DNA of 64,000 nucleotides, from NCBI GenBank assembly GCA_030583865.1, contig CP129479.1, positions 196,744 to 260,743 of the forward strand, in the 5' to 3' direction. Position numbers and translations under genes: made by a program. The first letter of the stretch is position 1, and each line of letters opens with the position of its first letter. The DNA is from Thermodesulfobacteriota bacterium. GTDB lineage: Bacteria > Desulfobacterota > GWC2-55-46. The notes below the pieces were generated by a model that saw only the letters and a program-made list of their open reading frames with translations, did not search any database and was not told the DNA's origin. This document shows, piece after piece, positions 9,108 to 61,694 of the stretch.

Positions 9108-9122
9108 GACATACCCTTTCAA

Positions 9123-9260
9123 GGCAACTCTCAAAAATTGATCTTTTCCCCGGACTCTTTGTCATGCCTGGAATAAAAATGCTCGCATATTGCCATATAT
9201 GCTCCGCTTTTTATTCCCGGCCTTTTATTGCGGGAAGATCTGCAATTTTTAGAGGTTGCC
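9123..9260 (+). repeat. Repeat family B, copy 1 (~138 bp near-perfect palindromic MITE/ERIC-like element)
   Basis: TIRs GGCAACTCTCAAAAATTGATC / AATTTTTAGAGGTTGCC. Inner inverted repeat GGAATAAAAA...TTTTTATTCC. Lies upstream of the moeA start. Confidence 0.9.
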
Positions 9261-9285
9261 TCAATTTAATCATAGCAGGGTGTTG

Positions 9286-9367
9286 AAAAACACCCTGCTA
9301 TGCAATCCACGGATGGATTGCCAAATTGCGAAGACTATCCAAGTCGAGCAATTTGTGAGGCTTGGAC
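9286..9367 (+). repeat. Repeat family C, copy 2
   Basis: GGGTGTTGAAAAACACCC hairpin plus conserved downstream segment. Matches copy 1 at 5518..5612. Confidence 0.8.
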
Positions 9368-9531
9368 GTATTCATTCCGGCCAAGCCGTAGTTGAAAAAA
9401 TCCAGGAAGGACTTTTTCAACATCCTGATAGTGTAAAACATATCACCATAAGGCTTGCGTGTAAATGGGTAAGAAGATACAGAAGGGCCAGGGAGAGACA
9501 CACTGCTCGAAGGCAGATCAAAAAGAGCTTT

Positions 9532-10050
9532 AACGCGCTGCCGCGCTTTTTGGGCATGAGGCTCCCCTCCATCCTCCGGGCTCGGCTCTTATGTCGCTCG
9601 GCCTTTGCCCTCGCTCCTGCTGCCCCGCCTCGCCCGTCCCTCCTCCATCCCTATGTCCGCTCCGCCTTATGCCCGGGGTTGTTTTAAATGCAAAAACAAA
9701 AGTGCTGTGAGATTTTTTATCTTTAACAAACCCCGGAGGGTAAGGCGAGCGCTGCATAAAGGAGGAAGAGCGTGAACGGGCCGGGAAAGCAGAACTAGGC
9801 CCTTCCCCTTCGTTTCACTCGCTCAGGGTAAACTCCGCGACTTCAGGGGCCCGTTGGAGATTACCGGCATTCCGCCGGGAATCTCCAACGCAAGAGGAAG
9901 ATTTCCGTATTTACATCCGCTCGCTCGACCCAGAAAAAACTCCTGGGTCTCTGCTCTGGTTTTGTGTGTTCACGGGGTGGGGGAGGGGCTGGCAAGCGAG
10001 CCTTACCCCCGGACCGCGCGGAAGCGCGGAAAAGGTCTTTCGTTTCGCGT
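9532..10050 (-). repeat. Repeat family D, copy 1 (~520 bp, internally palindromic with an AT-rich centre; carries a nested ~110-bp mini-insertion)
   Basis: Reverse complement aligns with 33262..33642 along most of its length. Extra segment relative to copy 2 maps to ~9862..9972, with its own inverted-repeat ends (CGTTGGAGATT at 9862..9872 / AATCTCCAACG at 9890..9900). Confidence 0.8.
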
Positions 10051-10147
10051 GAAAAAAAATCGCATCGCGTCAAAACGGTCTAGAAGAAGGGAATCGGATT
10101 AAGAGCTGAATGGGAAGGGTTCGTTTCAGTCAAAAGCTGACGTGCTA

Positions 10148-11575
10148 TCAGCCCTGCGGCTCCGTAACGGTTACCGCTTCAAACGCCGCGAAGGGGCTCT
10201 CCAGCGACGCGCTGCGGTCTGCCCTGACCGGTATCATTATTACGGTGCCGGGCCTGAGCCTCTTCGGGTTTAGGTTTTCGTTAAGGTGCATTATGGGTTT
10301 TATCTCGGTCCCGTACCTGGCGGCTATCCTGCCGAGCGTGTCCCCGCGCTTTATCTTGTGCTGCACGAAAGAAACCCTTTTCGCGGGCGGGACCTTCTTC
10401 ATGTTCTCTACGAACATCTCCGCCGTGCCCGCAGGTATTTTAACCTGGTAGCCGGGATAATCGGGCGGGGTGAACCAGCGCAGGAGCTCGGGGTTGAGCT
10501 TCCTTATCTCCTCGACGGTCGTGCCGGCGGCGGCGGCGATTACACGGAGGTCGGTCGCCTGCTTAACCGGGACCTTGTCATAACGGAGCCCTTCGTTGAA
10601 GACGACGGGGCTGAAGCCGTATTGCTCCGGGTCCTTCGCTATGGTGAGGGCGGCAAGGTACTTGGGCACGTATTCCCGCGTCTCCCGGTGGAGGACCTTT
10701 TTCTTGCTGGCGAGCTCCCAGAAGTCCTCGGTGCCCTGCTTCTTTATGGCCCTGGCGACCCGTCCTTCCCCGGCGTTATAGCCCGCAGCCGCAAGGTACC
10801 ACGAGCCGAACATCCCGTATAGGTTCTTAAGGTAGCTGGCGGCAGCGTACGTGGCCTTTTCGGGGTCCATCCTCTCGTCTATCCACCAGTCCACCCTGAG
10901 GCCGTACCTGACGGCCGTGCCTTTTATGAACTGCCACATGCCTACGGCGTTCGCGTGGGACCTTACGGTCGGGTTTAGCCCGCTTTCTATCAAGGCTATG
11001 TAGGAAAGGTCCTCGGGAAGGCCGTTTTCGCGCAGTATCGCCTGGAGCATGTGCATGTAGTCCGCGCTCCTAACGAGCCATTTTTCAAAGTGTTTCCGCC
11101 CGTTAGTCTGGAAGTACCTTATGAAGGACTCGACGTTCTTGTTGACAACGATGGGGATTTCCGGAAGCCCGGGCACCTCTTCGGCTTCCACCGCCTCCTC
11201 TATCGAGGCCTCGGCCACGAGGAACGGAGGCAGGGCATGGCCGGAGGCAACCTGGCCTGCCGCCTGGCATGAGGGCGCGTTCACCGCCGGCGCGGAACCG
11301 GTGTAGTCAAAGTGCATTACGCCGGTATCAGAGTTGGCATCGCATAGGTACAGCGCGTAAGCGTACCTTAAAGTGGTGATGTTCTGGAAGGGGACTTGTC
11401 CGGCGGGCGCGCCGAGCCCTTCTGTCGAGAGCCGCCCGGAGCTATCCTGGACCAGGGAGGCAAGCTGCGACCCTCCCTCCGCCACGGCCGGCCAGCCCGC
11501 GTCCGTGGTCGAAGCCCACGAGGGGGCGGCGAAGAGCGTCAACGAGAGCGCGGCGGCAAGGAGAGTCGGTTTCAT
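10148..11575 (-). CDS. mltD: Membrane-bound lytic murein transglycosylase (SLT domain + C-terminal LysM repeats)
   Basis: Signal peptide MKPTLLAAALSLTLFAAPSWA. SLT motif ESGLNP...GMWQF. LysM motifs at the C-terminus. Confidence 0.7.
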   Translation of the reverse strand: MKPTLLAAALSLTLFAAPSWASTTDAGWPAVAEGGSQLASLVQDSSGRLSTEGLGAPAGQVPFQNITTLRYAYALYLCDANSDTGVMHFDYTGSAPAVNAPSCQAAGQVASGHALPPFLVAEASIEEAVEAEEVPGLPEIPIVVNKNVESFIRYFQTNGRKHFEKWLVRSADYMHMLQAILRENGLPEDLSYIALIESGLNPTVRSHANAVGMWQFIKGTAVRYGLRVDWWIDERMDPEKATYAAASYLKNLYGMFGSWYLAAAGYNAGEGRVARAIKKQGTEDFWELASKKKVLHRETREYVPKYLAALTIAKDPEQYGFSPVVFNEGLRYDKVPVKQATDLRVIAAAAGTTVEEIRKLNPELLRWFTPPDYPGYQVKIPAGTAEMFVENMKKVPPAKRVSFVQHKIKRGDTLGRIAARYGTEIKPIMHLNENLNPKRLRPGTVIMIPVRADRSASLESPFAAFEAVTVTEPQG

Positions 11576-11583
11576 CGTCACCT

Positions 11584-13089
11584 TCAGCGGTTGTACGGGG
11601 ACCCGGCGCTCTGTCCGGGGATGCCGCCCGCAAGCTCTATCTGCCGGAACTTCTCCTTGACGTCCTCGGCTGTCTTTTTTGCCGCAAGCTCTATCTTTTT
11701 GCCTGCGCTGGTGAGGGCCCTGGTGTAATCGACGAAGTACTGGTTGTTCTTTATCCACTTCTTGGTAAGGCTGTGTCCGTAGGTCTTTATGCCGACATTG
11801 AAGAGGTCGAAGCGCGCGGCCCTCCTCGCTATCTGCCAGAGCGAATAGAATTCCTTGGTCGCCCTCATGGTCTCGGTCTGGAGCTCGTAGTAGCTCATGA
11901 GCTTGGGCTCGAAGACCACGTGGTGGGCGTCGTAGAGGCTCCAGTCCTTGCTTATTATGCGCCCCTCGCTTTCAAGGTCCCTGTAGCACTTGGTGCCCGG
12001 CAGCGGCGTAAGGATAAGGAACTGGACCGATTCGAGGTCGTTCTTCTTCGCGAACTTCACGGTCTCGGCTATGGTGTCGGTCGTGTCCTGGTCGGAGCCG
12101 AAGACGAACATGCCGTGTATCCTTATGCCGTTCTTATGGAGCGTCCTTATGCAGTTCGTTATGTCCTCGACCGACTGCTGCTTGTTATAGAGCTTTAGGG
12201 TCTGCGGGTTTATGGACTCGAGCCCTATGTAGACGGTGTGGCATTTCGATTTCCGCATGAGATCCAGGAGCTCCTGGTCTTTCGCGATCTCCACCCTGAC
12301 CTGGGCCGTCCAGTTGGGCGTCAGGCGCTTTTCTATCATCGTGGAGAGGAGTTCCTTGGTCCTCTTCTTGTGGGCGCAGAAGTTGTCGTCGTAGAAAAAG
12401 ACCCAGTTCCCACCGTACCTCCTGTGGTTCTCGAGCTCTTCTATGACCCTTTCCTTGCTCCTGAACCTGTACTTCTGGCCGAACATGCCGGTGACCGAGC
12501 AGAAGCTGCAGTCATAGGGGCACCCCCGCGAAGTCATTATAGGCGCTATGGTGAGCTTCCTTATGTTCTCGGTCTCCATGCCGCTTATGAGGCTGAAGTC
12601 CGGGGCAGGGAGCGTGTCCAGGTCCTTGCAGAACGGGGCGGTGGAGTTGTGCTTTATGGCGCCGTCCTTGTAATACGAGAGCCCGGCTATCTTGTCGAGC
12701 CCTTTTCCGGTCTCTAACGCCTTTATGAAATCCACGATGACGTCGTCGGCCTCGCCGCGGAGCACGTAATCCGCGTACTGGAGGGCCTCCTCAGGGAGGT
12801 AGGTTACATGGGGGCCGCCCATTGCAACGGGTATTCCGGCCTTCCTCACGAGCTTGGCTATCTCGTAAGACCTGCTGGATGTCGAGGTTATGGTGGAAAT
12901 ACAGACCAGGTCGGCGCTCAGGACGTCCTTGAGATCGAGTTCTCCCACGGACTCCACATAGCTTTTCACCTCATAGCCGCTCTGCCTGAGCCTTGTGCCC
13001 AGAAGCACCGTGCCGAGCCGCGGAAGGGGCATTCTCGTAAAGATATGAAAATCAGGGGGGTTAGGCTCGATGAAGACGATCTTTCGCAT
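11584..13089 (-). CDS. B12-binding-domain radical SAM protein (function unknown)
   Basis: N-terminal cobalamin-binding fold followed by a radical SAM CxxxCxxC motif (SRGCPYDCSFCS). Long C-terminal extension. Its stop lies 9 nt before the mltD start. Confidence 0.8.
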   Translation of the reverse strand: MRKIVFIEPNPPDFHIFTRMPLPRLGTVLLGTRLRQSGYEVKSYVESVGELDLKDVLSADLVCISTITSTSSRSYEIAKLVRKAGIPVAMGGPHVTYLPEEALQYADYVLRGEADDVIVDFIKALETGKGLDKIAGLSYYKDGAIKHNSTAPFCKDLDTLPAPDFSLISGMETENIRKLTIAPIMTSRGCPYDCSFCSVTGMFGQKYRFRSKERVIEELENHRRYGGNWVFFYDDNFCAHKKRTKELLSTMIEKRLTPNWTAQVRVEIAKDQELLDLMRKSKCHTVYIGLESINPQTLKLYNKQQSVEDITNCIRTLHKNGIRIHGMFVFGSDQDTTDTIAETVKFAKKNDLESVQFLILTPLPGTKCYRDLESEGRIISKDWSLYDAHHVVFEPKLMSYYELQTETMRATKEFYSLWQIARRAARFDLFNVGIKTYGHSLTKKWIKNNQYFVDYTRALTSAGKKIELAAKKTAEDVKEKFRQIELAGGIPGQSAGSPYNR

Positions 13090-13379
13090 TAGCAGTAGTC
13101 CTTTTCCACATGAATGCCATTCATCTTACCCGCGTACAACCGCACTGTCAAGGAAAATGCCTGCCCCGCTCTCCTCTGAAAAACGCCTGAATCACGGGTT
13201 TTTTCAGGAAAATCCAGCTCCTCCGGCCAGCTCTGCCGTCCCTTTCGGGAATGCATCATACGCTTGTTTCCGAAATGAATATGTGAGTTGAGGCACGGAT
13301 TCCAGATGAATATGGAAAATAATCCGGATGCCTTGTTTTTACATCGGAGTTTTCGGGGCTGACTTGAGCCGCACGGGCT

Positions 13380-16202
13380 TTAAAAGGGTGTGTTTTTCTG
13401 CAGGGCCTTTTTCAGGTATTTCGCGGTTATGCTCCGGGGGTTCATCGAGACCTCCTCGGGGGAGCCGGCAGCCACTATCCGACCCCCTTCATCTCCGCCC
13501 GAAGGGCCGAGGTCTACTATGTGGTCGGCCGTCTTCATGCAGTCGAGGTTGTGCTCTATCATCAGGACCGAGCTCCCGGAATCGACAAGCCTTCCGAGCA
13601 CCGCGAGTAGTTTTTTCACGTCGTCCATGTGGAGCCCCGTTGTGGGCTCGTCGAGTATGTATAGGACGTCCCCGGAGGACTCCTCCACGAGTTCCCGTGC
13701 AATTTTCAGCCGCTGGGCCTCGCCTCCGGAAAGGGTGGTCGCGCTCTGCCCGAGCTTAAGGTACCCCAGGCCAACTTCCCTGAGGACGGAAAACCTCCTC
13801 TGTAGCGCGGGCTCGTTCGGGAAAAGCGCCATCGCGTCCTCGAAAGTCGTCTCAAGTACATCGTATATGCTTTTTCCCCTGTATTTGACGTCGAGGACGT
13901 GGCCCTTGTACCTCCTGCCCCGGCATACCGCGCATTTTACGTATACGTCAGGGAGGAAATACATCTCGAGCTTCTCAAACCCCTCTCCCTTGCACGACTC
14001 GCACCTGCCGCCGGCGACGTTGAAGGAGAAGTCCCCGGGGGAAAGCCCCATGACGCGGGCAGATGAGATCCCGGCGAATATCTTCCGTATGTCGTCAAAA
14101 CCGCCTATGTAGGTGAGGGGGTTCGAGCGCGGCGTCCTTCCTATGGGGCTCTGGTCGATGAGCTTGACGCCCGAGACCCTGTCAAGGCCCTGCACGGACG
14201 AGTACGGGAGAGGCGGCTCCGACTTCTCGCCGAAGTGCGCGGCGAGCACCGGGTATAGCGTGTCCACTATGAGCGTGCTTTTGCCTGAGCCGGAAACTCC
14301 GGTAACGCACGTCATGGTCTTCAGCGGCACTTCGAGGTCAACGGATTTCAGGTTATTGCCCGAGGCGCCCCGGATGACGAGCGACCTGCCGCTCCCCTTC
14401 CTTCTCCATCTGGGCACGTGTATGGTCTCCCGGCCCGTGAGGTAATCAGAGGTCAGGGTGCGCGCCGATTCAAGGAACTCGCGTGTGGACCCGGCCCATA
14501 CTACCCGCCCGCCCTTTTCGCCGGCGCCGGGGCCGAGCTCTATTATGTGGTCTGATTTCGCCATCATGGACGGGTCGTGCTCGACGGTTACGACGGTATT
14601 CCCGATCGAGGAAAGCCTCTTAAGCTGGTTTGTAAGCAGGTCAATGTCGACCGGGTGGAGCCCTATGGACGGCTCGTCGAGTATGTAGAGGACGCCGGAG
14701 AGCGAGGACGCAAGCTGGGTCGCTATGGTGACCCTTTGCGCCTCCCCGCCGGAGAGGGTCTTTGTGAGCCTGTCCAGGGTTATGTAGCCGAGCCCGGTCT
14801 GGCTGAGGAACTCGAGCTTGGTCCGTATCTGCTTGAGGACCTCCTCCGAGACCGCGGCCTCGAAGGGGGCGAGCTCCAGGGATGAAAAGAACGAGAGTGC
14901 GTCCTTTATAGTCAAAGCGCTGGCCTCGGCTATGTTGAGACCGCCGATCTTCAAGGAGAGCGCCTCTTTCTTGAGCCTTGCCCCCTTGCAGGCTGAACAG
15001 GTTACCTGCCCCTTGTAGCGCGAACTGAACACCTTGATGTGCAGCTTGTATTTCTTGCTCTCCAGGTAGTCGAAGAACTCTTCTATCCCCTCGAAGCCGG
15101 GCGCGCCGCCGAAGACGATATCCCGCTCCCTGGCCGTAAGCTTCCCGAAAGGCTTGTCTATATCGACCCCGTGTCGCGGCGCGTGCTTTATGAGCTCTTC
15201 GTGCCACCACCGGTAGGACGGCTTTGTCCATGGCTCGATAGCGCCCTCGCGGAGCGTAAGGGACTTATCGGGCACGACCTTTGCCTCGTCGAAGCGGAGC
15301 ACATTTCCGAAACCCTTGCACTCCGGGCAGGCGCCCACCGGGTGGTTGAAGGAGAGGGAGATGGGAGATGGCCTTTCGACCCTGGCGCCGCAGTTCCGGC
15401 ATGAAGGCTCTTTTGAAAAGGCCTCTTCGCCCTTTTCCGGCATAAAGGCCCATGCCGAGCCGCCGCCTTCCCTGAAGGCCGTCTCAAGCGCCTCGGTGAG
15501 CCTGCGCCTCTCGCTATTCTTGATGAAGAGCCTGTCCGCAACCACCTCCAGGCGGCCCTTGAGCCCGCCAGGAACGCCCTCGGATATGTCGATTATCTCC
15601 GAACCTTTTCTTACGCGTATGTAGCCCTTCTGGAGGAGCATGGAGACGGCCTCCTCAGAAGTCCTGCCGTTGAGGGGGAGGTTGAAACCTATGTACGCGC
15701 GCTCGCCCTCGTATTTCGAGAGGAGCTCGTCAGCGGCATGGCCCGGACCGCCCTGGCTCACCGGAAACCCGCAGGCCGGGCAGTGGAGCCTCCCGGCCCT
15801 GGAAAAGAGGAGGCGCAGGTAGTCGTTAAGCTCGGTAGTCGTGCCGACGGTCGAGCGGCTGCCGCGGACCGGGTTTTTCTGCTCGACCGCTATGGCGGGC
15901 CGGATGTTCCTTATTGCGTCCACGTCCGGCCTGTCCATCCTTTCGAGGAAAAGCCTCGTGTAGGTGGAGAGCGACTCTATGAACCTCCATCGGCCTTCGG
16001 CAAAAAGGGTGTCGAAGGCGAGCGAGGACTTCCCCGAGCCGCTCGGCCCGACTATGGTCGTTATGAGGTTATGCGGGATGCGGACCGAGATATTCTTGAG
16101 GTTATTCTGCTTGAGCCCCTCGATTACCAGCTCGTCTTTGCCAAGGGGGAGCGGGGATTCGAAGGAGATGGCCTCGGCCTTCCCTGTCTTTTTTCTCGCC
16201 AT
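13380..16202 (-). CDS. uvrA: Excinuclease ABC subunit A
   Basis: 940 aa. Two ABC ATPase modules (GPSGSGKSSLAF, GVSGSGKSTL) and zinc-finger Cys clusters. Confidence 0.95.
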   Translation of the reverse strand: MARKKTGKAEAISFESPLPLGKDELVIEGLKQNNLKNISVRIPHNLITTIVGPSGSGKSSLAFDTLFAEGRWRFIESLSTYTRLFLERMDRPDVDAIRNIRPAIAVEQKNPVRGSRSTVGTTTELNDYLRLLFSRAGRLHCPACGFPVSQGGPGHAADELLSKYEGERAYIGFNLPLNGRTSEEAVSMLLQKGYIRVRKGSEIIDISEGVPGGLKGRLEVVADRLFIKNSERRRLTEALETAFREGGGSAWAFMPEKGEEAFSKEPSCRNCGARVERPSPISLSFNHPVGACPECKGFGNVLRFDEAKVVPDKSLTLREGAIEPWTKPSYRWWHEELIKHAPRHGVDIDKPFGKLTARERDIVFGGAPGFEGIEEFFDYLESKKYKLHIKVFSSRYKGQVTCSACKGARLKKEALSLKIGGLNIAEASALTIKDALSFFSSLELAPFEAAVSEEVLKQIRTKLEFLSQTGLGYITLDRLTKTLSGGEAQRVTIATQLASSLSGVLYILDEPSIGLHPVDIDLLTNQLKRLSSIGNTVVTVEHDPSMMAKSDHIIELGPGAGEKGGRVVWAGSTREFLESARTLTSDYLTGRETIHVPRWRRKGSGRSLVIRGASGNNLKSVDLEVPLKTMTCVTGVSGSGKSTLIVDTLYPVLAAHFGEKSEPPLPYSSVQGLDRVSGVKLIDQSPIGRTPRSNPLTYIGGFDDIRKIFAGISSARVMGLSPGDFSFNVAGGRCESCKGEGFEKLEMYFLPDVYVKCAVCRGRRYKGHVLDVKYRGKSIYDVLETTFEDAMALFPNEPALQRRFSVLREVGLGYLKLGQSATTLSGGEAQRLKIARELVEESSGDVLYILDEPTTGLHMDDVKKLLAVLGRLVDSGSSVLMIEHNLDCMKTADHIVDLGPSGGDEGGRIVAAGSPEEVSMNPRSITAKYLKKALQKNTPF

Positions 16203-16321
16203 GCGTATATAGCCGTCTTTGAGCTTGATTTAACTACTGATTATAGCTCATTAAATGGGAGCATGACCAGAAAAAAAGCCGGACAAAGGGGGGTGAGTCG
16301 CATGAAAATGGGTGTGCTCTT

Positions 16322-17122: not shown

Positions 17123-17342
17123 AAGCTGCCCGTTCCCGATCTCAAGATCTAATGCCAGTCAGTAAGCGTCCAGTCTTATCGTTTCTCGACGGTCCCGCAG
17201 ATGCTCCGGGCTTGTCTCGCGGCATCCGCAGGCCTTGGCTAAAGGGCTATTGACCAGCCCACATAGCCTTTATACCACAGACCGATTGCGATTTGGAGCT
17301 TAACAGTACGGGCTTTACCTGTTGAGATGACTCCACGGTCTG

Positions 17343-18295: not shown

Positions 18296-18301
18296 GCAGG
18301 T

Positions 18302-33206: not shown

Positions 33207-33261
33207 GCCTCATAGTAATGGGAGCGAAAGGCCCTAAAGCAGGCGGCTTTCGGCATGAGCA

Positions 33262-33642
33262 AAAAACTTTTTCCGCGCTGCCGCGCGGTTTTCGAGGGCA
33301 AGGCTCGCTTGCTAACCCCCTCCCCCACCCCGTGAACGGACCCCTGAAGTCGCTTCGCTCCTGGCTTCCCCGGCCCGTTCACGCTCCGCCTCCCTTATGC
33401 AGCGCTCGCCTTACCCTCCGGGGTTTGTTTCAAGACAAAAAAGGACTTTTACAGCACTTTTGTTTTTGCATTTAAAACAACCCAGGGCATAAGGCGGAGC
33501 GAACATAGGGTTGGAGGAGGGGCGGGCGAGGCGGGGCAGCAGGAGCGAGGCCAAAGGCCGAGCGACTTAAGGGCCGAGCCCGGAGGATGGAGGCGGAAGG
33601 GAGCGGAGCCTTATGCCCAAAAAGAGCGCGGCAGCGCGTGAA
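33262..33642 (+). repeat. Repeat family D, copy 2 (~380 bp, internally palindromic with an AT-rich centre)
   Basis: Inverse of copy 1 (9532..10050). Terminal inverted repeats TTTTTCCGCGCTGCCGCGCGG / CGCGGCAGCGCG. Confidence 0.8.
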
Positions 33643-33698
33643 ATAGGTCTTTTCGAGAGAGACCGATTTGATCCGAACACAAAAGGCCGTGGTTACCC

Positions 33699-44705: not shown

Positions 44706-45214
44706 TGCCTTCGGCCTTCGTGGGCATCGGCTCGAACATGGAGCCCGAGGAGAATTTGAAGAAGGCCTTGCGGCTCCTTTCAGGAGAGGGGCTTTTTGCC
44801 CTCTCGACCGTTTACCGGACCGAGCCGCTTAATAGGCCCGGGCAGCCCAGGTTCCTTAACTGTGTTGCCGGGCTCAAGACGGAAAGGCCGCCACTTGAGC
44901 TAAAGGCCGCGCTCAAGGATATCGAGGCCTCGCTCGGGCGGGTGCGCACGGGCGACAGGTACGCGCCGAGGCCAATAGACCTCGACCTCGTCTCATATTG
45001 CGATACAAGGCTTGAAGAAGGCGGCCTCGTCCTCCCGGACCCTGAGATAGAGACCCGCCCGTTTATCGCAATCCCGTTACTTGAAATCGCCCCTGACGCC
45101 CTGACCCCCTCAGGCACTCCGCTTGAAAAGATCGTAAATGGACTTCCCGGGATTCATATGGAGCCGCTCACAGAGCTTACGGAGCGGCTCAGAAGCGACC
45201 TTTCACTCCTTTAA
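44705..45214 (+). CDS. folK: 6-hydroxymethyl-7,8-dihydropterin pyrophosphokinase
   Basis: HPPK motifs (GIGSN, RPIDLDL). Confidence 0.85.
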   Translation: MPSAFVGIGSNMEPEENLKKALRLLSGEGLFALSTVYRTEPLNRPGQPRFLNCVAGLKTERPPLELKAALKDIEASLGRVRTGDRYAPRPIDLDLVSYCDTRLEEGGLVLPDPEIETRPFIAIPLLEIAPDALTPSGTPLEKIVNGLPGIHMEPLTELTERLRSDLSLL

Positions 45215-45317
45215 CCTGCGCGACACGCCATGCCCTTTCTTAACCAGAATCGCTCGGTATGTATCCTGTTGTAAACCCTTAAGGGTTCGATTTCTCAAGA
45301 ATTTTTTAATAAAAAGG

Positions 45318-46020: not shown

Positions 46021-46049
46021 TTGACAATGCGGGCTATTTCTGTTAACAT
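46021..46049 (+). promoter_or_regulatory. Sigma70-type promoter TTGACA-17 nt-TAACAT
   Basis: Called from the sequence by eye. Lies 320 nt upstream of htpX. Confidence 0.45.
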
Positions 46050-46198: not shown

Positions 46199-46336
46199 GG
46201 CAGCTCTAAAAATTGATCTTTTCCCCGGACTCTGTGTCAGGCCGGTAATAAAAATGCTCACATATTGACATATATGCTCCGCTTTTTATTCCCGGCTTCC
46301 TCTATTGCGGGAAAAATCTCTAATTTTAGAGCTGCC
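46199..46336 (+). repeat. Repeat family B, copy 2
   Basis: GGCAGCTCTAAAAATTGATC...TTTTAGAGCTGCC ends with a palindromic core. Ends 34 nt before the htpX ATG. Confidence 0.9.
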
Positions 46337-49488: not shown

Positions 49489-49629
49489 GGCAACCTCTAA
49501 AAATTGACCTGTACCCCGGACCCTGCGTCTGGCCGGGAATAAAAATGCTCACTATTACTCATATATGCTCCGCTTTTTATTCCCGGCCCTCCTTGATTGC
49601 GGGAAAAATCTCCAATTTTGGAGGTTGCC
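49489..49629 (+). repeat. Repeat family B, copy 3
   Basis: TGGCAACCTCTAAAAATTGAC...CCAATTTTGGAGGTTGCC. Ends 28 nt before the cytochrome c ATG. Confidence 0.9.
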
Positions 49630-52131: not shown

Positions 52132-52288
52132 CAGGTTGCTGAAAAAGTCCATCTGCGTCGAAGGCTACGTACTTGATACTCCGGCGTACAGGGAAAGTAC
52201 GCCTCATCCTCGCTCCCCTGTTCCAATAAGGCCTCGCATCTGAAGTTTTTTCGGGAGCCTGAATAAACGAAGTTTTTAGCAAGCTAAA
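52132..52288 (+). repeat. Repeat family A, copy 3
   Basis: Starts 1 nt after the porin stop: CAGGTTGCTGAAAAAGTC...CGGCGTACAGGGAAAGTACGCCTCATCCTCGCTCCCC.... Confidence 0.85.
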
Positions 52289-53461: not shown

Positions 53462-53485
53462 AATCCATCTGAAATATCCGGTATA

Positions 53486-53518
53486 AGAAAGCCGCCCTGC
53501 AAGGGGCGGCTTTCTTAT
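53486..53518 (+). terminator. Rho-independent terminator (AAAGCCGCCC-loop-GGGGCGGCTTT)
   Basis: GC stem followed by TTTCTTATT after pstS. Confidence 0.75.
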
Positions 53519-53575
53519 TGGAATCTCAACCGGCCCGTAACATTACCTTAACAATAGCGGAATAGAATCGAGCAT

Positions 53576-54256: not shown

Positions 54257-54294
54257 GCATTAGAAAAAACGGCGCGGAAGGAATGCCGGTCGCC

Positions 54295-55365
54295 TCAGGA
54301 ATAGGGAGCCCTTAGCTTCAGGTCTGAAGCTTCGGCCCCGAAGAGCCGTTTTCTAAAGTAAACGGACACATTCACAAGGGCCATCATTACCGGCACCTCG
54401 ACCAGCGGGCCGATGATCGCGGCGAAAGCCGCCTCGGAGTGGATCCCGAAGGTGGCGATCGCCACGGCTATTGCCAGCTCGAAATTATTGGAGGCCGCGG
54501 TAAAGGCCACTGTAGCGGTCCTTGGGTAATCCGCTCCGACCCGCCTCCCCATCCAAAAACTCACCAAGAACATGACGACGAAATAGACGAGGAGCGGCAG
54601 GGCTATGAGCGCGGCATCGAGAGGTATCCTCATGACTTCCCCGCCCTTCAGGCTGAACATCACGACAATCGTGAAGAGGAGGGCCGTAAGGGTCAGGGGG
54701 CTTATCTTGGGGATGAACGAGCCCTCGTACCAGTCGCGCCCTTTGAGCCTTACGAGAACGAGCCTGGTAACCATGCCGGAAAAGAAAGGTATGCCGAGGT
54801 ATATGAGGACGCTCTCCGCGATTTCCGGCATGCCTATGTTGACGACCGCGCCTTCCGCGCCCAGAAGCGGAGGGAGGAGTGTTATGAAGAACCAGGCGTA
54901 GAGGCTGTAAAAGACTATCTGGAAGAGGCTGTTCACGGCCACTATGCCCGCAGCGTACTCCGAATCGCCTCCGGCGAGGTTGTTCCAGACTATGACCATT
55001 GCGATGCAGCGCGCAAGCCCCACGAGTATGAGGCCGGCCATGTACCCCGGGTGGTTTCCGAGGAAGAGGAGGGCCAGTCCGAACATGAGCGCCGGGCCGA
55101 TAAGCCAGTTCTGCGTAAGCGACAGGGCGAGTATCTTCCAGTCCCTGAAGACCTTGCCGAGCTCCTCGTAACGGACCTTCGCAAGAGGCGGGTACATCAT
55201 GAGTACGAGGCCTATTGCTATGGGTATGTTGGTCGTGCCGCTCCCGAGCGAGTCTATGAAGACCGAAAGCGCGGGGAATGCCCAGCCCGCCAGAACGCCC
55301 GCGCCCATGGCCAGGAGCACCCAGGCGGTCAGGAACCTGTCGATGAAAGAAAGCCTTGCCGTCAA
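54295..55365 (-). CDS. acr3: Arsenite efflux transporter, ACR3 family
   Basis: 10-TM protein with ACR3-family N-terminal motifs. Confidence 0.85.
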
Positions 55366-55794
55366 TTACGAACCCTTTTCGAGTATCTCGGGCAGTCTCT
55401 TTATGAATTCCCGTATCTCGTCCCTGACCCTTCGGTAATGCGCAATGGCCTCTTCGCGGCTCCTTGCGCTTTTTGCTAGACCTGGCGGGTCGTCAAAGCC
55501 CGCGTGCACTACCTTCGGCGCGCCGGGGAAAAGGGGGCAGTTCTCGTCTGCATCCGAGCAGACAGTTATCACAAGGTCGAAATGCCTTCCATTCACGGCA
55601 TCCAGGCCCTTCGAGGCCTGGCCGCTTATGTCCACGCCGGCCTCCTGCATGGCCCCTACCGCGAGAGGGTCGAGCCCCTTGGGCCTTGTGCCAGCGGATT
55701 CGGCCTCAATGCGTCCGGCCCAGAAGTGGCGCGCCCAGCCCTCGGCCATCTGGCTCCTGCACGAGTTCCCGGTGCAGAGAAAGAGCACCCTCAT
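55366..55794 (-). CDS. arsC: Arsenate reductase, LMW-PTP type (thioredoxin-coupled)
   Basis: CTGNSCRS P-loop. Its ATG overlaps the arsR stop (ATGA). Confidence 0.85.
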   Translation of the reverse strand: MRVLFLCTGNSCRSQMAEGWARHFWAGRIEAESAGTRPKGLDPLAVGAMQEAGVDISGQASKGLDAVNGRHFDLVITVCSDADENCPLFPGAPKVVHAGFDDPPGLAKSARSREEAIAHYRRVRDEIREFIKRLPEILEKGS

Positions 55795-56156
55795 TTTTTC
55801 GCCTGTGTCCTGCAAAGCTCCTCCTTTGAGACCCCGGTGATCTTTTTGAGGCTCAGCAAATCCCTCGTAACGGAACTGTCTGCCTCGAGCGCCTCCCTGA
55901 CCCACTTCAGGGCCTTCCGCGCCGAGGGAGAGGCGTCCCGGCCCGCGAGCCTGAAGTACACCCAGCGGCCGTCCTTCCGGGAGCTTATGAGGCCGGCCTG
56001 ATGGAGCACGCTGAGATGTTTGGAGACCGTGGAGGGCGCAAGCCCGAGGAGGCCGACTATCTGGCAAACGCAGAGCTCGCCGCCTGAAAGGGCCATAATG
56101 GCCCGGAGCCTTGCCTTATCCGAAAGAGCCCTTGCTATGGAGACCGTCTCGTTCAT
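55791..56156 (-). CDS. arsR: ArsR-family metalloregulator
   Basis: ELCVCQI metal-binding motif within the HTH region. Confidence 0.85.
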   Translation of the reverse strand: MNETVSIARALSDKARLRAIMALSGGELCVCQIVGLLGLAPSTVSKHLSVLHQAGLISSRKDGRWVYFRLAGRDASPSARKALKWVREALEADSSVTRDLLSLKKITGVSKEELCRTQAKK

Positions 56157-56359
56157 TCATAATACTATAATTCGCCACATGACGAATTGTCAAGGGCTAT
56201 TGCGCAGGCATGGGCCGTGTGCCGGACAGGCGCATTTCAGGAAGGGTTCCCGCCCGTTAAAAGCACGGGACGCTTATCTGCCCCTTTTCAGAAAATGAAT
56301 GATCTATTCGGAATGCTCGGGATATGGAGGCAGGCTGGAGCCTTTGGGAAGGATGTAGG

Positions 56360-56758
56360 TTATTTGCCCGGGCCGGAGACCGTCTCGCCCCCGGCTTTAA
56401 TCCAGGCGTTTATGCCGCCCTCAAGGTCGCGTACTCCCTTGTTGCCTTTCCAGCCGAGGATGCCGCGGGCCGTCTGGCTCCTCTTGCCGGAGCGGCAGTA
56501 GAGGATTACCTGGCCGTCCTCGGGGAGGGGCTCTGCGTTCTCCAGGGTATCCAGCGGCATAAGGACGCTCCCCGGGATGTGCGATTCCGCGTGCTCCTGC
56601 GGGGTGCGGACGTCTATCAGTATCACGCGCTCCCCTCTCTCCATCATGGCCTTCAATTCCCCGGCAGTCACCCTGGCCGGGTCAGCCGCGATTGATACCG
56701 ACGCGAAGCAGGCGATAAGGAACGCGAGGGGGATAGCCGTAAAAAGCAGGTTACGCAT
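56360..56758 (-). CDS. Periplasmic single-domain rhodanese (sulfurtransferase)
   Basis: Signal peptide present. Active-site loop CRSGKRS. Confidence 0.8.
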   Translation of the reverse strand: MRNLLFTAIPLAFLIACFASVSIAADPARVTAGELKAMMERGERVILIDVRTPQEHAESHIPGSVLMPLDTLENAEPLPEDGQVILYCRSGKRSQTARGILGWKGNKGVRDLEGGINAWIKAGGETVSGPGK

Positions 56759-56802
56759 GGCCGCATTATACCAGTTCAGGCCCTGCGGGCAAAGTGTTTT
56801 TT

Positions 56803-56945
56803 GGCAACCTCTAAAAATTGATCTTTTCCCCGGACCCTGGGTAGTTACGGGAATAAAAATGCTCACATATTACTCATATATGCTCCGCTTTTTATTCCCG
56901 GCCTTCCTTGATTGCGGGAAAAATCTCTAATTTTTAGAGGTTGCC
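56803..56945 (+). repeat. Repeat family B, copy 4
   Basis: TGGCAACCTCTAAAAATTGATC...TTTTTAGAGGTTGCC. Lies between the permease stop and the rhodanese start. Confidence 0.9.
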
Positions 56946-56947
56946 TT

Positions 56948-57760
56948 TTATCGGGAAAAGGCCTTGCCGCCAGCGCCTGAAAAGAGCCTCAGGGCGAGGA
57001 GCGCGAAGAACAAGACGCTCAGGGAGGCCACTATGAGAGGGGCCGCCGGCAGGTCGAAGGAATAGGAGAGGATGAGCCCCGAAAGGCTCGCCGCCACGCC
57101 AAGGGCCCAGCCCAGGAGCAGCTGCCATTTGAGCCTGCCTGTTAAAAGCTTTCCTGTGAGCACCGGTATCACCAGGAAAGCGAAGACCTGAAGCACCCCG
57201 GCCATCTGAACGGATTTTACGAGAACGAGCGCGAAGCTCAGGAAGAAAAGGAACTCCCAGGCACCGCCGCCCCGTCCCTCGAAAGAGAGCGAAAGGAACT
57301 TCCTCCTGAACGCGAACTGGAAGAGCCCTATCCCGGAATAGAGCGCGAAGGCCGCGAAAAGCTCACCGGGCGCGACCCACAGTATGCTGCCGTTCAGTAT
57401 GGCCTTGAACTCTTCCATGCCGTGAGGCGTCCTGTCGAGGACGAGCATGCTCGCCGAGAGTGAAAAGATGTAGAGGACGCCTATGAAGGCTTCGATATTG
57501 GCAACCCTCGATATCGTCCTTGAGAAAGAAAGTATGAAGGCCCCCAGCACCGCGAAGCCCAGTGAAAAGGCCGCGCCGCTCCATTCGCCCCATCCCAGAA
57601 AGAACGAGAGCGCGGTCCCGAGCCCGATGAACTGGGCGAGCGAGAGGTCCACGAAAATTATCCCCCTCCGGAGCACATGCACCCCGAAGTAAGCGTGCGC
57701 GATTACGAGGAGCACGCACGCCAGGAAAGGGAAAAGGAGTATGCCGAGGGCCTCCATCAC
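56948..57760 (-). CDS. Metal (Zn/Mn-type) ABC transporter permease, ABC-3 family
   Basis: 270 aa with 8-9 TM segments and a ZnuB-like pattern. Confidence 0.75.
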   Translation of the reverse strand: MMEALGILLFPFLACVLLVIAHAYFGVHVLRRGIIFVDLSLAQFIGLGTALSFFLGWGEWSGAAFSLGFAVLGAFILSFSRTISRVANIEAFIGVLYIFSLSASMLVLDRTPHGMEEFKAILNGSILWVAPGELFAAFALYSGIGLFQFAFRRKFLSLSFEGRGGGAWEFLFFLSFALVLVKSVQMAGVLQVFAFLVIPVLTGKLLTGRLKWQLLLGWALGVAASLSGLILSYSFDLPAAPLIVASLSVLFFALLALRLFSGAGGKAFSR

Positions 57761-57762
57761 CT

Positions 57763-58653
57763 TTAATCTCCGCTTAAATCCTTAACCACCCTGTCCATGA
57801 GGCCGAACCAGTCGTCTATGCCTTTCTGGCTCCCGACCTCGTGGGGCAGGACTATCGCTTTCACGCCGGTCCTCTTCGAGAGGAAGCCGAGGGCCTTGCC
57901 GCCGTGATAGGAGGTGGTAAGGATAGCGTCCGGCCTCTCTTTCGACATCGAATCCACAAGCTCCGCAATGTGCCCGGAGGAGGGCGGGATGCCTGGCCGC
58001 TGCTCTATGTAGCCGGTTATCCTGAAACCGAGGTCCGCCGCCAGGTACTCGAAGAACCTGTGGAAAGCCACATAGCTTTTGCCCTTGAGCCTTCCATCCC
58101 ATTCCTTCCTCCTCTCGGCGAGTTTTTTCTCGAAAGAGGCGAGGTTGGCCATGTAAAGGCCCCCGCTGCCGCTGTCGAGCGCCGAGAGGGCCTCTGCGAT
58201 GCCCCTGGCGACCCTGCCCATTTGAGAGGCCGAGAGGTGGTAATGCGGGTTGCCGAGCGGGTGCACGTCACCCTGGCTCCTGTCGACCCGCTCCTGTATT
58301 TCTATTGGTTTGACGAATTTGGAGCAGTCCAGGTAGCCCGCCTTGCCCGGCTGGATACCGGGATTTCTCGACGACTCGATTATGACCGGAAGATAGCCGA
58401 TTTCCAGGTCCAGGCCGTTGAATATGACGATATCCGCTTTCCTTGCCGCGGCTATCATGCTCGGCCTGGCCTCGATGTAATGCGGGTCCTGGTTCGGTTT
58501 TACGAGCACGGTAACGGTGACCCTGTCTCCGCCGATGTCCTTTGCGACGCTCCCTATCCATGGGAGCGTCGCAAGGACATTAAGCTCGGCGGCTAATGCC
58601 GGGCCTGAAAGGAAAAACATCGTGAAAACGGCCAAGAGAGCCCTTTTAAGCAC
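57763..58653 (-). CDS. Metal ABC transporter substrate-binding protein (ZnuA/TroA-like)
   Basis: Signal peptide. Cluster-9 SBP with His-containing metal-site motifs. Confidence 0.75.
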   Translation of the reverse strand: MLKRALLAVFTMFFLSGPALAAELNVLATLPWIGSVAKDIGGDRVTVTVLVKPNQDPHYIEARPSMIAAARKADIVIFNGLDLEIGYLPVIIESSRNPGIQPGKAGYLDCSKFVKPIEIQERVDRSQGDVHPLGNPHYHLSASQMGRVARGIAEALSALDSGSGGLYMANLASFEKKLAERRKEWDGRLKGKSYVAFHRFFEYLAADLGFRITGYIEQRPGIPPSSGHIAELVDSMSKERPDAILTTSYHGGKALGFLSKRTGVKAIVLPHEVGSQKGIDDWFGLMDRVVKDLSGD

Positions 58654-58663
58654 GTATTCCTCC

Positions 58664-59908
58664 TTAGAACTTGTGGGCTGAGTGGGCGCCTATGCCGAAT
58701 ATGGCCTGCAAAAAGACCTCGCGGTTCGTCTCTCCGCCGCTTAAGCTCCTGTCGTGGTTATACTGGAGCCTGAGCCTCGTGAACTCGGAGGGGTTGTATT
58801 CGATTGCGGCAGTCGCCCTCCAGGGGTCGTTCCCGAAGTCCACAGGCTCGCCGTCGAGGATGTATTTGTCCTTAAAGAGCCCGAGGCCGTCGTATCTCGC
58901 GCCCAGCCTCCATCTGTCGACCCGGTACACGGCCTGTACATAGTAGCCGTCCTGCTTTCTCTCCAGCCCCTCAAGAGTCAAAAGGTTTCCGTCGTCGTCG
59001 AATTCCGACAGGTCGCCGTCCTGGTCCCTGTAGAGGTATTCGGCCTGGAGTTTGAAGGCCCTTTTTTCCGAAGGCGTCAATTTATAGGTGAGCTCAAGGC
59101 CCCATAGGGTGGAATCGCCCTCGAACCCGGTGTTTTCCCCGATGGAGCCGGTATTGGTCTTGCCAAAGGCTACTGAAGGACCGAAAAGGAGCGTGGACTT
59201 CTCGTCAAGGTCAAGAGACGCCTTCGCGAAAGCCGCATAGGCGCGCGGGCCGGTCGCAGCGTCTTCCCGGAAAAGAACCTCGTTCTCTCCCTGGAGCGCC
59301 TCAAGCCCCAACTCCGCATAGAACGGCAGGGCCGGGAGGTATGTGACCTGGACGCCCTTTTCTATCAGGCCCTCGTCGCCTAAAAAGGCCCTGTAGGGAA
59401 GAGGGGAGTCGGCAAAGTCCCACTGGTGCCGGTGCTGGCCGTTGAGCCTGCCGAAGCCGCTCTTGAACTTGCCGCCCTTGAGCTGCAGTCCCGCCGAAAG
59501 CGCCGTGGTAACGAAGTAAGCCTCCTCGAGCTCCACCTCCTCTTCCGTCACGGGGATCGTGGCGTAGAGGTTGAAATACGGGTCGACCGGCGCGAAGAAG
59601 AAGAGCTCCGCCGATTCGAGGTTGAAGCCCTTCTTATGCTCGAACTCCTCGTGGATATAGCCGGAGATCTCCCGCTCCTCTATCTCCGAAGGCGAGAGGT
59701 TTGAGCCGTAGAAGAAGGTGTCGAGTATGAGCGAGATATTGGGGTTCATGAGCGCGGAACCCCCGAAGAGGCCGCTTGACGCGCGCGAGTCCTTTTCTTG
59801 CGATTTGAGCGCGTCCTCAAGGTTCTTTATCCGGGTCTCGATATCATCGGCGTATGCCGGAAATGCAAGAACCGCCATCAACATGAAAGAGAGCAGGTAT
59901 TTCAACAC
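58664..59908 (-). CDS. Outer-membrane beta-barrel protein associated with the metal-uptake locus
   Basis: Signal peptide present. Acidic, beta-rich sequence with a C-terminal F. Confidence 0.55.
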   Translation of the reverse strand: MLKYLLSFMLMAVLAFPAYADDIETRIKNLEDALKSQEKDSRASSGLFGGSALMNPNISLILDTFFYGSNLSPSEIEEREISGYIHEEFEHKKGFNLESAELFFFAPVDPYFNLYATIPVTEEEVELEEAYFVTTALSAGLQLKGGKFKSGFGRLNGQHRHQWDFADSPLPYRAFLGDEGLIEKGVQVTYLPALPFYAELGLEALQGENEVLFREDAATGPRAYAAFAKASLDLDEKSTLLFGPSVAFGKTNTGSIGENTGFEGDSTLWGLELTYKLTPSEKRAFKLQAEYLYRDQDGDLSEFDDDGNLLTLEGLERKQDGYYVQAVYRVDRWRLGARYDGLGLFKDKYILDGEPVDFGNDPWRATAAIEYNPSEFTRLRLQYNHDRSLSGGETNREVFLQAIFGIGAHSAHKF

Positions 59909-60029
59909 GTTATTCCTCCTCAGCAGGTGAAATAGATGTCCATAGACGGGAAAAGGCGGACGAGCCCGCGCGATTACGGATTACTTCCGCAGCCGGCTAT
60001 GGCGGTTATGTAGGTTCTCTGGCTGGATT

Positions 60030-60293
60030 TCAGAAAAGAGGAGGGGCCCTGACTCTTTTGCGGCTCTGAATCTGAGCGGGCCTGTATATGAAGAAGGCCG
60101 TGGATAGTACGAAGAGGACGGATAAGGCCGGCGCCCACGATGCCGATGACGGCGTAACCGACTGATGGTGAGAGGCTACGGCGCAGACCTGGCAGTCCTT
60201 GTGGACGGCCCCGTCCTCGTGGTGGTGGATGCTCAGGCCGACCCCGGTAAAAAGGAAGACGGCGGCCAGGATTATAAGGAGCTGCCTTCTCAT
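60030..60293 (-). CDS. Small 2-TM protein with His/Cys-rich loop (HHHEDGAVHKDCQVCAVASHH)
   Basis: 87 aa with a metal-binding-like loop between two hydrophobic segments. First gene of the metal-uptake cluster. Confidence 0.5.
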   Translation of the reverse strand: MRRQLLIILAAVFLFTGVGLSIHHHEDGAVHKDCQVCAVASHHQSVTPSSASWAPALSVLFVLSTAFFIYRPAQIQSRKRVRAPPLF

Positions 60294-60515
60294 GACCGCG
60301 CCATTTTAGTTTACGCGGCCACTGCTGTCAACCGGAACCGGAAGCTCAGCTTCGGGAATCCATTTTTTCTGCACTGCCCCGCTTCCTTGACAATCCACCC
60401 TTGTGTGTTAGGGTTTTAAGTGAGAGCCGCATTCCGGGCGTGTCTACGCGTTCCCTCAGGAGGAGCGCGCCAGTTCAATCAATCTCGGTTTTTTTGAAAA
60501 GACAGGGGGTATGGC

Positions 60516-60923
60516 TTGAGCGCTGCTGCCCAATACGCGCCGCTTTGGCCGCTTGCCGTCTATTTCGTCGGGGTAGTCCTCCTCGTCGGGGCCATGCTCG
60601 TCCTCTCCCATGTGCTTGGCGAGCGGAGGAGGGAAAGGCTCACCTCCGTCCCCTATGAGTCCGGTGTCGTAGCGACCGGCTCGGCCCGCCTACATTTCGA
60701 CGTGAAATTCTACATGGTAGCCATGTTCTTCGTGATCTTCGACATGGAAGCCGTCTTCGTATTCGCCTGGGCCGTTTCCGCACGCGAAGCAGGCTGGGCC
60801 GGATATATCGAGATGCTAATCTTCATAGGGATACTGCTTGCCGCGCTCTTTTATCTATGGAAGCTCGGGGCCCTCGAATGGGGCACCTCCATGAAGATAA
60901 GGAGGAAGACAGAGCCTCTCTGA
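60516..60923 (+). CDS. nuoA: NADH-quinone oxidoreductase subunit A
   Basis: 3-TM NuoA-like protein. TTG start with a GGGGG RBS. Confidence 0.8.
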   Translation: MSAAAQYAPLWPLAVYFVGVVLLVGAMLVLSHVLGERRRERLTSVPYESGVVATGSARLHFDVKFYMVAMFFVIFDMEAVFVFAWAVSAREAGWAGYIEMLIFIGILLAALFYLWKLGALEWGTSMKIRRKTEPL

Positions 60924-60944
60924 AAATATCAAAGGGGGCGGGTC

Positions 60945-61556
60945 ATGCGGTTGAATACCGGGCATGCGGAGATGCCGGCGGGCGTGGAAGCGCAGCGCCG
61001 GAACTTTTTGCTTACGAAGCTCGAAGACATGGTGGCATGGGGCAGGAAGAACTCCCTGTGGCCGCTTAACTTCGGGCTTTCGTGCTGCTATATAGAGATG
61101 GCCGCGAGCATAACGAGCAGGCACGATATCGCGCGCTTCGGCGCCGAGGTCCTCCGGTCAAGCCCCAGGGAGGCGGACCTAATGATAGTGGCAGGCACCG
61201 TGTTCGTAAAGGTGGCGCCCATGGTAAAGAGGGTCTACGAGCAGATGATGGCCCCCAAATGGGTGATCTCAATGGGCTCGTGCGCGAACTCCGGCGGCAT
61301 GTACGACATATATAGCGTTGTCCAGGGCGTTGACTCGATACTGCCGGTCGACGTCTATGTGCCGGGATGCCCGCCGAGACCGGAGGCGCTCACTGAGGGG
61401 CTCATCCTACTTCAGAAGAGGATAGCCGCGGAGAGGAAACCCCTTACATGGATAACGGGTGAAGCCGAAACGAGGGGAAAAAAGCTCCCGGTCATGCGGG
61501 AGCAAAAAGGCTGGAGGAAAGAGGCGACCACGTTAAGGGAGCCTGACGAGGCCTGA
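60945..61556 (+). CDS. nuoB: NADH-quinone oxidoreductase subunit B
   Basis: Fe-S cluster motifs ([21 protein letters not shown]). Confidence 0.9.
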
Positions 61557-61560
61557 AAAA

Positions 61561-61694
61561 TGGCAGCCTCTAAAAATTGATCTTTTCCCCGGACTCTGCG
61601 TCAGTCCGGGAATAAAAATGCTCACATATTGCCATATATGCTCCGCTTTTTATTCCCGGCCTTCCGGGAAAAGCGGGAAAAATCTCTAATTTTC
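61561..61694 (+). repeat. Repeat family B, copy 5
   Basis: TGGCAGCCTCTAAAAATTGATC...TTTTCAGAGGGTTGCC. Starts 5 nt after the nuoB stop. Confidence 0.9.

Follow-up and report, generated by a model that had tools for sequence, protein, structure and literature searches.

A family of ~142-bp palindromic repeats, probably a non-autonomous DNA transposon, in an uncultured Thermodesulfobacteriota lineage

A stretch of 64,000 nucleotides from a Thermodesulfobacteriota bacterium (GenBank assembly GCA_030583865.1, contig CP129479.1, which is 2.75 Mb long, positions 196,744 to 260,743; hereafter the window) carries five copies of a palindromic repeat, here called Family B and numbered c1 to c5. An earlier note, made from these letters alone, had offered several roles for the repeat: a mobile element of the Correia or ERIC style, a bidirectional terminator or mRNA stabiliser, or a protein-binding scaffold. 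The question raised by the locus is whether the repeat has spread as a mobile element or is kept in place for a function in the host. The analysis favours the first answer. Family B is, with a probability of about 0.85, a ~142-bp non-autonomous DNA transposon, that is, a transposable element of the miniature inverted-repeat type (MITE), and all the features that define a MITE were found in it, an identified partner excepted. This interpretation is supported by the multi-copy state, by 4-bp target-site duplications (TSDs) and by empty sites in relatives. Elements of this kind are well known; Family B is new in its sequence, its host clade and its 4-bp T-N-W-A target.

Target duplications, empty sites and distribution

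The flanking 4-mers of the full-length copies were identical in 15 of 40 cases, and three of the four positions matched in 11 of 40 more. When the comparison was offset as a control, only one perfect match in 40 was obtained. The duplicated sequences are variable (TTTA, TTAA, TCAA, TGAA, TGTA, TTTT, TAAA) and describe a 4-bp, A/T-rich target of the form T-[T/A/G]-W-A, usually followed by R-T. The earlier note had named TSDs as a point to be checked, and duplications of 4 bp were borne out against empty sites at c4 and c1.

The orthologous regions were retrieved through PstS and MoeA homologues. The c4 site was clean and empty in three related loci, L086, L088 and L090, where GTGTTTTTTATGGGG stands in place of GTGTTTTTT, the element and TTTTATCGGG in the window, and BLAST revealed the same empty junction in L087. 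The c1 site was empty in L093/L094 and L095/L096; in these relatives (A/T)TGA occurs once only, just 5' of the ribosome-binding site of moeA, while in the window TTGA is present on both flanks of the element. At the c2 site of L086/L087 only a 15-bp remnant of the 3' terminal inverted repeat (TIR) is left, TTTTAAGAGGTTGCC. The copy c3 has an ortholog in L086/L087 (7123-7265) at the same site and with the same TSD. The two differ by blocks that distinguish subfamilies (CCTTGATTGCGGG in place of CCGGGAAAAGCGTGG), which suggests gene conversion among dispersed copies. The copy c5 is common to the window and to a more distant metagenome-assembled genome (MAG), UBA5799 (L090 9182-9326), and no clean empty site is available for it because the spacer of the H5_GWC clade is a different 38-bp sequence. 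Genomes with 85-93% identity thus differ by gains and losses of copies, and the insertion polymorphism anticipated earlier was found in close relatives, with c1 and c4 empty and c2 reduced to a footprint.

A second line of evidence comes from six composites of ~285 bp, located at different loci in three genomes, in which the same second MITE is nested in the 3' arm of Family B. The nested element has the TIR GGAAGCTCTGATTAATTC and the TSD CTAA, and was also found on its own. Since the same nested insertion recurs at six loci, the composite was copied whole, by way of the outer Family B ends. Moreover, in no locus examined was Family B the end of a larger insertion sequence (IS).

The distribution of the family was determined with a 20-mer from the core, scanned against one genome per species (185,579 species), which returned 85 stretches. 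Real matches were confined to a few related uncultured 'Deltaproteobacteria/Thermodesulfobacteriota' MAGs (H5_GWC, UBA5799, four NC_groundwater MAGs, GWB2_55_19, DP16D_bin.2 and BACT1) and one further contig of 2.4 kb that is binned as Methylophilaceae. Matches in Metabacillus and Clostridia were chance hits that the nhmmer profile did not recognise. The plasmids contained no match, and among JGI metagenome contigs the TIR 21-mer had no match and the core 20-mer two. The closest well-sampled relative, H5_GWC, which comes from a partial-nitritation/anammox reactor (PMC7648391), shares roughly 90% DNA identity with the window. Searching the retrieved loci with nhmmer gave about 95 copies at about 84 distinct sites; the element is thus multi-copy in related genomes. 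About 60 of the copies belong to H5_GWC, roughly 1 per 43 kb for an estimated ~2.6 Mb, so that the earlier figure of hundreds genome-wide is about three-fold too high for this sampled relative. Family B is therefore restricted to one lineage, with tens of copies per genome.

Structure and placement of the window copies

The five copies were confirmed, all on the + strand and all members of one repeat family, by alignment, by nhmmer and by an invariant 27-mer, CATATATGCTCCGCTTTTTATTCCCGG, which had exactly five matches in the window and none in 100 shuffles. An nhmmer profile built from the five detected no further copy in the window. The coordinates given earlier held for c1 to c4 but not for the end of c5 (Table 1); with the former end the copy folded poorly because the 3' TIR was cut off. 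Pairwise identity among the copies was 83.3-90.2%, and the value of >85% reported before is therefore correct for some pairs but not as a general claim.

Table 1. Family B features in the window
Feature	Position	Strand	Length	Duplication or sequence
Copy c1	9123..9260	+	138 bp	TSD TCAA at 9119-9122 and 9261-9264
Copy c2	46199..46336	+	138 bp	imperfect TSD TAAA / ATAA
Copy c3	49489..49629	+	141 bp	TSD TATT / TGTT
Copy c4	56803..56945	+	143 bp	TSD TTTT at 56799-56802 and 56946-56949
Copy c5	61562..61705	+	144 bp	end corrected from 61694
5' TIR (c4 as example)	56803..56823	+		GGCAACCTCTAAAAATTGATC
Conserved apical core (c4 as example)	56852..56901	+		AATAAAAATGCTCACATAT..CATATATGCTCCGCTTTTTATTCCCGG
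3' TIR (c4 as example)	56926..56945	+		TCTAATTTTTAGAGGTTGCC
Family B end sequences				GGCAACCTCTAAAAATT ... AATTTTTAGAGGTTGCC

Copies of the family range from 138 to 146 bp, and each has TIRs of 17-21 bp, an inner inverted repeat and an asymmetric core, just as had been described. The terminal GGC/GCC showed no substitution wherever it was aligned, and the TIRs of c2 carry matching changes at both ends (GGCAGC...GCTGCC). The copy nearest to the consensus is c4, with perfect 17-bp TIRs; its 5' TIR contains TAA at element positions 10-12 and TGA at 17-19, by which upstream open reading frames (ORFs) are closed in several copies. Conserved coding capacity was absent from Family B, the sole internal ORF (25 codons, starting in the core) being frameshifted by indels among subfamilies. 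The G+C content is 56-61% in the window and 59% in the genome, and G+C at third codon positions (GC3) of real genes is about 0.7-0.83 in the window and about 0.78 genome-wide.

Gene calls at the copies were made with Pfam and annotated relatives. The 5' end of c1 lies 15 nt from the ATG of the divergent moeA. The copy c2 is located 33 nt 5' of the ATG of htpX (Peptidase_M48) and 3' of a predicted promoter at 46021-46049, and c3 lies between a - strand gene of the Thiamine_BP family and a cytochrome c gene, 28 nt 5' of the ATG of the latter. Since promoters are predicted upstream of both, c2 and c3 are probably carried in 5' untranslated regions (UTRs). The copy c4 begins 3 nt beyond the stop of an ABC-3 permease gene, 5' of the predicted promoter of a rhodanese gene, and is antisense to both genes. 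In the sense orientation, c5 follows the nuoB stop by 6 nt and precedes a fused nuoCD. The ORFs that seem to start within copies are artefacts of picking the first start codon; once these were set aside, all five copies proved to be intergenic and none disrupts an ORF, as had been noted. Between co-directional genes of the retrieved loci, 39 copies were sense and 22 antisense, a result that supports the MITE reading. In a genome of 59% G+C, A/T-rich targets would be found mostly at gene borders, that is, at stop codons, in spacers next to ribosome-binding sites and in terminator loops. Such a concentration would account for the strictly intergenic placement and for the fact that the element is often at a stop codon or supplies one. 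Effects on neighbouring genes, from a hairpin of -50 to -65 kcal/mol in the 5' UTRs of htpX and the cytochrome c gene and in the nuoB-nuoCD spacer, would then be a side effect.

Partner, folding, polarity and the competing explanations

Several observations weigh against the transposon reading and are considered together here. The copy c5 has no recognisable TSD. Neither the window nor about 0.75 Mb of related loci yielded an autonomous element with Family B inverted repeats, and both the transposase and its DDE/IS5 assignment are inferred. The symmetric cut-and-paste model predicts neither a 29:6 bias of gene stops towards one end of the element nor the concordant orientation of adjacent copies in 31 of 41 pairs. 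Finally, the core is more conserved than the outer inverted repeat, which is unusual for a purely selfish MITE.

The search for a partner yielded a number of candidates that were rejected. TIR pairs 0.4-4 kb apart were in every case pairs of separate MITEs, and no multi-copy ORF was present among the about 0.75 Mb of loci. A 2.6-kb insertion beside an H5_GWC copy encodes nitrite/sulfite-reductase-like genes, truncated copies adjoin housekeeping genes, and the low-GC3 ORF at window 6693-7733 proved to be a shadow ORF of mtnA. A DDE-type transposase acting in trans would bind both inverted repeats, make 4-bp staggered cuts in the target and integrate the element. Members of the IS5 family have, by their ISfinder properties, inverted repeats starting with GG or GA and a 2-4-bp A/T-rich duplication. 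Family B was observed to have inverted repeats starting with GG and a 4-bp A/T-rich duplication, which presumably fit this family best, a lead rather than a test. The CTAA of the nested MITE likewise fits the YTAR target of the IS5 group.

The folding of the repeat was evaluated for every full copy. Each forms one long imperfect hairpin on either strand, with about 53 consensus pairs and bulges. On the + strand the folding energies were -51 to -59 kcal/mol and on the - strand -51 to -67 kcal/mol, with z of about -6 to -10. The single long hairpin foreseen by the earlier note was thus obtained, although its "near-perfect palindrome" is overstated in view of the bulges and a ~28-nt asymmetric apex. 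When 83 copies were compared over the 53 consensus pairs, 89.6% of the cells paired. Changes on both sides of a pair were found in 75 cells compared with 27 +/- 4 in shuffles, and were concentrated in the TIR helices. Such double changes are expected when both ends must fit one transposase; correction of the quasi-palindrome could also produce them.

The possibility was considered that the hairpin acts as RNA. In Family B, G-U pairs (74) are no more frequent than A-C mismatches (96), which gives no sign that one RNA strand is under selection. A structured RNA or riboswitch was rejected: RNAalifold applied to a MAFFT alignment of the 83 copies recovered the apical stem only, and Rfam 15 gave no match in the window, the best sub-threshold score being 19.8 bits against a gathering score of 87. 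A consensus scan of 45-64 kb found no canonical or consistent sigma-70 promoter and no intrinsic terminator within the copies, and hand inspection for sigma-54, ECF-type and sigma-70 motifs gave matches only on variable positions. The Ts after the hairpin come only from the 4-bp duplication, and a G+C-rich stem with an immediate T-run was not seen. The suggestion of a bidirectional terminator is therefore not sustained, and an efficient terminator at c5 would be harmful because this copy sits within the nuo operon. Nor did the secondary suggestion of a role at the mRNA level gain support, no transcribed strand being favoured.

The position of the copies relative to genes is polar. The stop of a credible gene that reads into the element lies between -18 and +11 nt relative to the 5' end at 29 sites, and relative to the 3' end at 6 (p about 1e-4). 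At about ten sites the 5' TIR itself contains this stop (TAA at 10-12 or TGA at 17-19). However, the supply of stops cannot explain the 5' bias, since both inverted repeats offer equivalent ones. The target itself is asymmetric. After T-N-W-A there is a purine at +5, and T occupies +6 in 39 of 62 sites, compared with 14 of 62 for T at the mirrored 5' position. At unoccupied gene ends the forward motif was found 36 times and the reverse motif 17 times. Because the forward motif outnumbers the reverse one at these stops, target availability can explain roughly 2:1 of the roughly 5:1 bias, and the rest of the bias is statistically inseparable from this share.

The orientation of neighbouring copies is a further departure from symmetry. 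The 31 of 41 adjacent pairs on a contig that agree exceed the 20.8 +/- 3.2 predicted by a model based on gene direction (P = 0.001). Local hopping was rejected as the cause of these runs, since identity is 87.6% between adjacent copies and 88.0% between non-adjacent ones. An effect of the replication strand is possible: orientation against GC skew gave a raw ratio of 57:33, and 47:38 after correction for the coding strand, which is not significant. In the window, gene orientation changes at about 38 kb: genes are mostly on the - strand over 1-38 kb and mostly on the + strand over 38-64 kb, and the cumulative GC skew rises from about this point. With the coding strand corrected for, all five copies, c1 included, lie where the + strand has a positive GC3 skew.

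These runs bear on two other explanations. REPIN/REP-like elements are long intergenic hairpins with a possible replication-strand bias, and Family B might have been moved, as they are, in single-stranded form by a RAYT transposase (HUH, IS200/IS605-like). The folding of the whole element, the covariation of the arms beyond the inverted repeats (33:132 CG to UA in 9 copies, 52:116 CG to GC in 16), the runs of one orientation along contigs and the weak link to GC skew would be consistent with such a route. Insertion of the IS200/IS605 type, however, leaves no duplication, whereas the variable 4-bp duplications of Family B are real and backed by empty sites. Furthermore, the replication-strand signal did not survive the coding-strand correction, and no RAYT gene was seen in the 8-kb blocks around the copies, though no genome-wide Y1_Tnp scan was made. 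Movement by a RAYT enzyme is accordingly very unlikely. The second explanation is recombination of gene cassettes. The attC sites are imperfect palindromes about as long as Family B, placed behind the cassette ORFs with their orientation fixed; apart from this match in size, the ends of Family B resemble ..AAC / GTT.., its copies lie just past the stops of co-oriented genes and neighbouring copies share their orientation. Yet the copies are dispersed among core genes (nuo, htpX, moeA, mreB, amtB) rather than in arrays, the c1 and c4 insertions added the element alone, with a TSD and without a cassette ORF, and the ends are unlike RYYYAAC / GTTRRRY beyond AAC/GTT. An attC-like identity is scarcely credible.

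The core of the transposon requires a separate explanation. In 14 copies from divergent lineages the arms were 79% identical to the consensus, whereas core positions 50-69, which lie outside the 20-mer used for retrieval, were 98.9% identical. Something selects the core. Our best guess is a cis-site by which so short an element is mobilised; the alternative is a role at the host level. The apical core could, speculatively, be a cis-acting site for the element's own propagation, for example a bend or an accessory-protein site for synapsis of ends ~100 bp apart. The conserved core may also bind a protein.

A host-level role would mean that a repeat of MITE origin has been domesticated, and is kept, for instance, as a polar RNA hairpin at 3' ends or in 5' UTRs that makes transcripts more stable or attenuates them, or because a nucleoid or regulatory protein binds at the core. 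The near-invariance of the core (about 99%, with the arms at 79%), the excess of co-oriented gene stops at the 5' end (29 compared with 6), the retention of c3 and c5 across genomes 85-92% identical and the position of c2 and c3 between predicted promoters and start codons would be expected of such an element. The RNA evidence argues otherwise: G-U pairs (74) are not above A-C mismatches (96), RNA from the - strand folds at least as well as that from the + strand, and the copies have no canonical terminator or promoter. In addition, 22 copies are antisense between co-directional genes, copies are freely gained, lost and truncated between close relatives, and orthologous copies are about as diverged as their surroundings. 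The asymmetric target motif alone predicts a gene-end polarity of about 2:1 (36 compared with 17). Domestication is thus improbable.

It is conceivable, though unlikely, that the integration of Family B or its survival after integration is polar, with the 5' end at gene borders and stops, a shared orientation over tens of kb and a core of ~45 nt that is nearly invariant while the arms covary. If this were true, a factor bound to the core would let the transposition system respond to an asymmetric target or to the direction in which replication or transcription runs; alternatively, the MITE would have been recruited by the host as a polar element just after stop codons.

Known relatives, neighbouring repeats and significance

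As a MITE, Family B resembles the Correia and ERIC elements in architecture. The Correia elements (CREE) of Neisseria are ~100-155-bp MITEs that are palindromic over nearly their full length, lie at gene borders, are often co-transcribed and have a functional internal site. They have 26-bp inverted repeats and a TA duplication, and IHF binding, promoters and RNase III processing have been documented. Family B differs in the unrelated sequence of its inverted repeats and in its 4-bp duplication, and its nearest IHF-like match, GATCAATTTTTAG in the 5' arm, has two deviations from the consensus. The REPIN/REP-RAYT systems are likewise long-hairpin intergenic repeats present in tens to hundreds of copies, but REPINs have no target-site duplication and depend on RAYT, in contrast to the duplications of Family B. 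MITEs derived from transposons of the IS5 family, the bacterial kin of PIF/Harbinger-Tourist, are like Family B in having inverted repeats that start with GG and 3-4-bp A/T-rich duplications. The Family B target, T-N-W-A and then R-T, is looser than the YTAR of the IS5 group and is asymmetric, and no IS5-like (DDE_Tnp_1) partner with Family B inverted repeats was present among the loci examined.

The ERIC or IRU elements of enterobacteria are ~127-bp imperfect palindromes that lie between genes and within transcribed regions and for which no transposase is known (PMC3184786, Table 1). Family B differs from them in host clade and sequence and in its clear 4-bp duplications and recent insertion polymorphism. 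The nearest analogue is Chunjie, a MITE of Geobacter uraniireducens Rf4 with a length of 178-235 bp, 21-bp inverted repeats and 9-bp direct repeats (Chen et al. 2008, summarised in PMC3184786 and PMC10969869). Like Family B it is deltaproteobacterial, has inverted repeats of ~21 bp, is richer in A+T than its host, folds into a stable hairpin and occurs in tens of mostly intergenic copies; a Chunjie copy inside an operon left it intact, which may be compared with c5 in the nuo operon. Family B is unlike Chunjie in its length of ~142 bp and its 4-bp duplications. A sequence relationship was not evident: the real matches to the core 20-mer were in a few uncultured MAGs, none labelled Geobacter.

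Other repeats were found in the same intergenic regions. A second family of ~105-180 bp is present at window 251-432, 52132-52283, 61767-61872 and about 7693-7855, and several copies lie in related loci, among them L086 4553-4658, 11868-11972 and 19156 onward. Its ends read CAGGCTGCTGAAAAAG...CTTTTTGAGCAGCCTG, with a CTCCGGCGTAC..GTACGCCTCATTCCTC motif inside, and it is probably another MITE family. A repeat of ~158 bp at window 9274-9431, with inverted ends CAGGGTGTTGAAAAA / TTTTTCAACATCCTG, lies 13 bp from c1. This MITE, unrelated to Family B, is absent upstream of moeA in L093-L096, with a possible CTAT/TAT duplication, and another copy is found in L019 (NC_groundwater), ~110 bp from a Family B copy. 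Orthology of that Family B copy with c1 was rejected, since only the repeats match. A G+C-rich, internally palindromic repeat of ~400-500 bp occupies window 9520-10040 and 33250-33650 in opposite orientations and has matches in at least 8 related loci; the ORFs across it (9256-9687 and 33218-33475) have low GC3 and no Pfam match and are probably not genes. The MITE with the GGAAGCTCTGATTAATTC TIR, ~125-145 bp long with a CTAA/TAA duplication, was found at L009 5409-5551, L086 9722-9864, L001 3531-3671 and elsewhere. In L086/L088 it lies in the spacer between the porin gene and pstS, where the window has the copy of the CAGGCTGCTGAAAAAG family at 52132-52283; different MITEs thus fill one spacer in different strains.

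Larger differences between strains were also observed. The amtB-thiE interval of H5_GWC (L076 774-3366) holds a Family B copy and ~2.5 kb of nitrite/sulfite-reductase-like genes, and the window (1765-1781) is without both. Both genomes have TAG as the amtB stop, and in H5_GWC the element starts with the G of this codon. A separate contig of 5 kb (L002) carries a duplicate, at 97.7%, of the segment L076 774-2586. In L086/L087 (906-2750) a NotI-like restriction enzyme and a D12-class methyltransferase are encoded between HPPK and the gene upstream of htpX; this ~2-kb block is missing from the window, where 45178-45280 corresponds to L086 799-2893.

The result is a new, well-supported MITE family, with its boundaries, target motif, subfamilies and a nested partner MITE, for a barely studied uncultured lineage of anammox-reactor and groundwater assemblies whose intergenic regions are crowded with several repeat families. 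The repeats have practical consequences. They break short-read assemblies, as in H5_GWC, where a contig ends inside c3, create spurious ORF starts, can supply stop codons and serve as strain markers. The polarity of orientation and the conserved core are the only features of Family B that could teach something new about how MITEs choose their targets or come to be co-opted.

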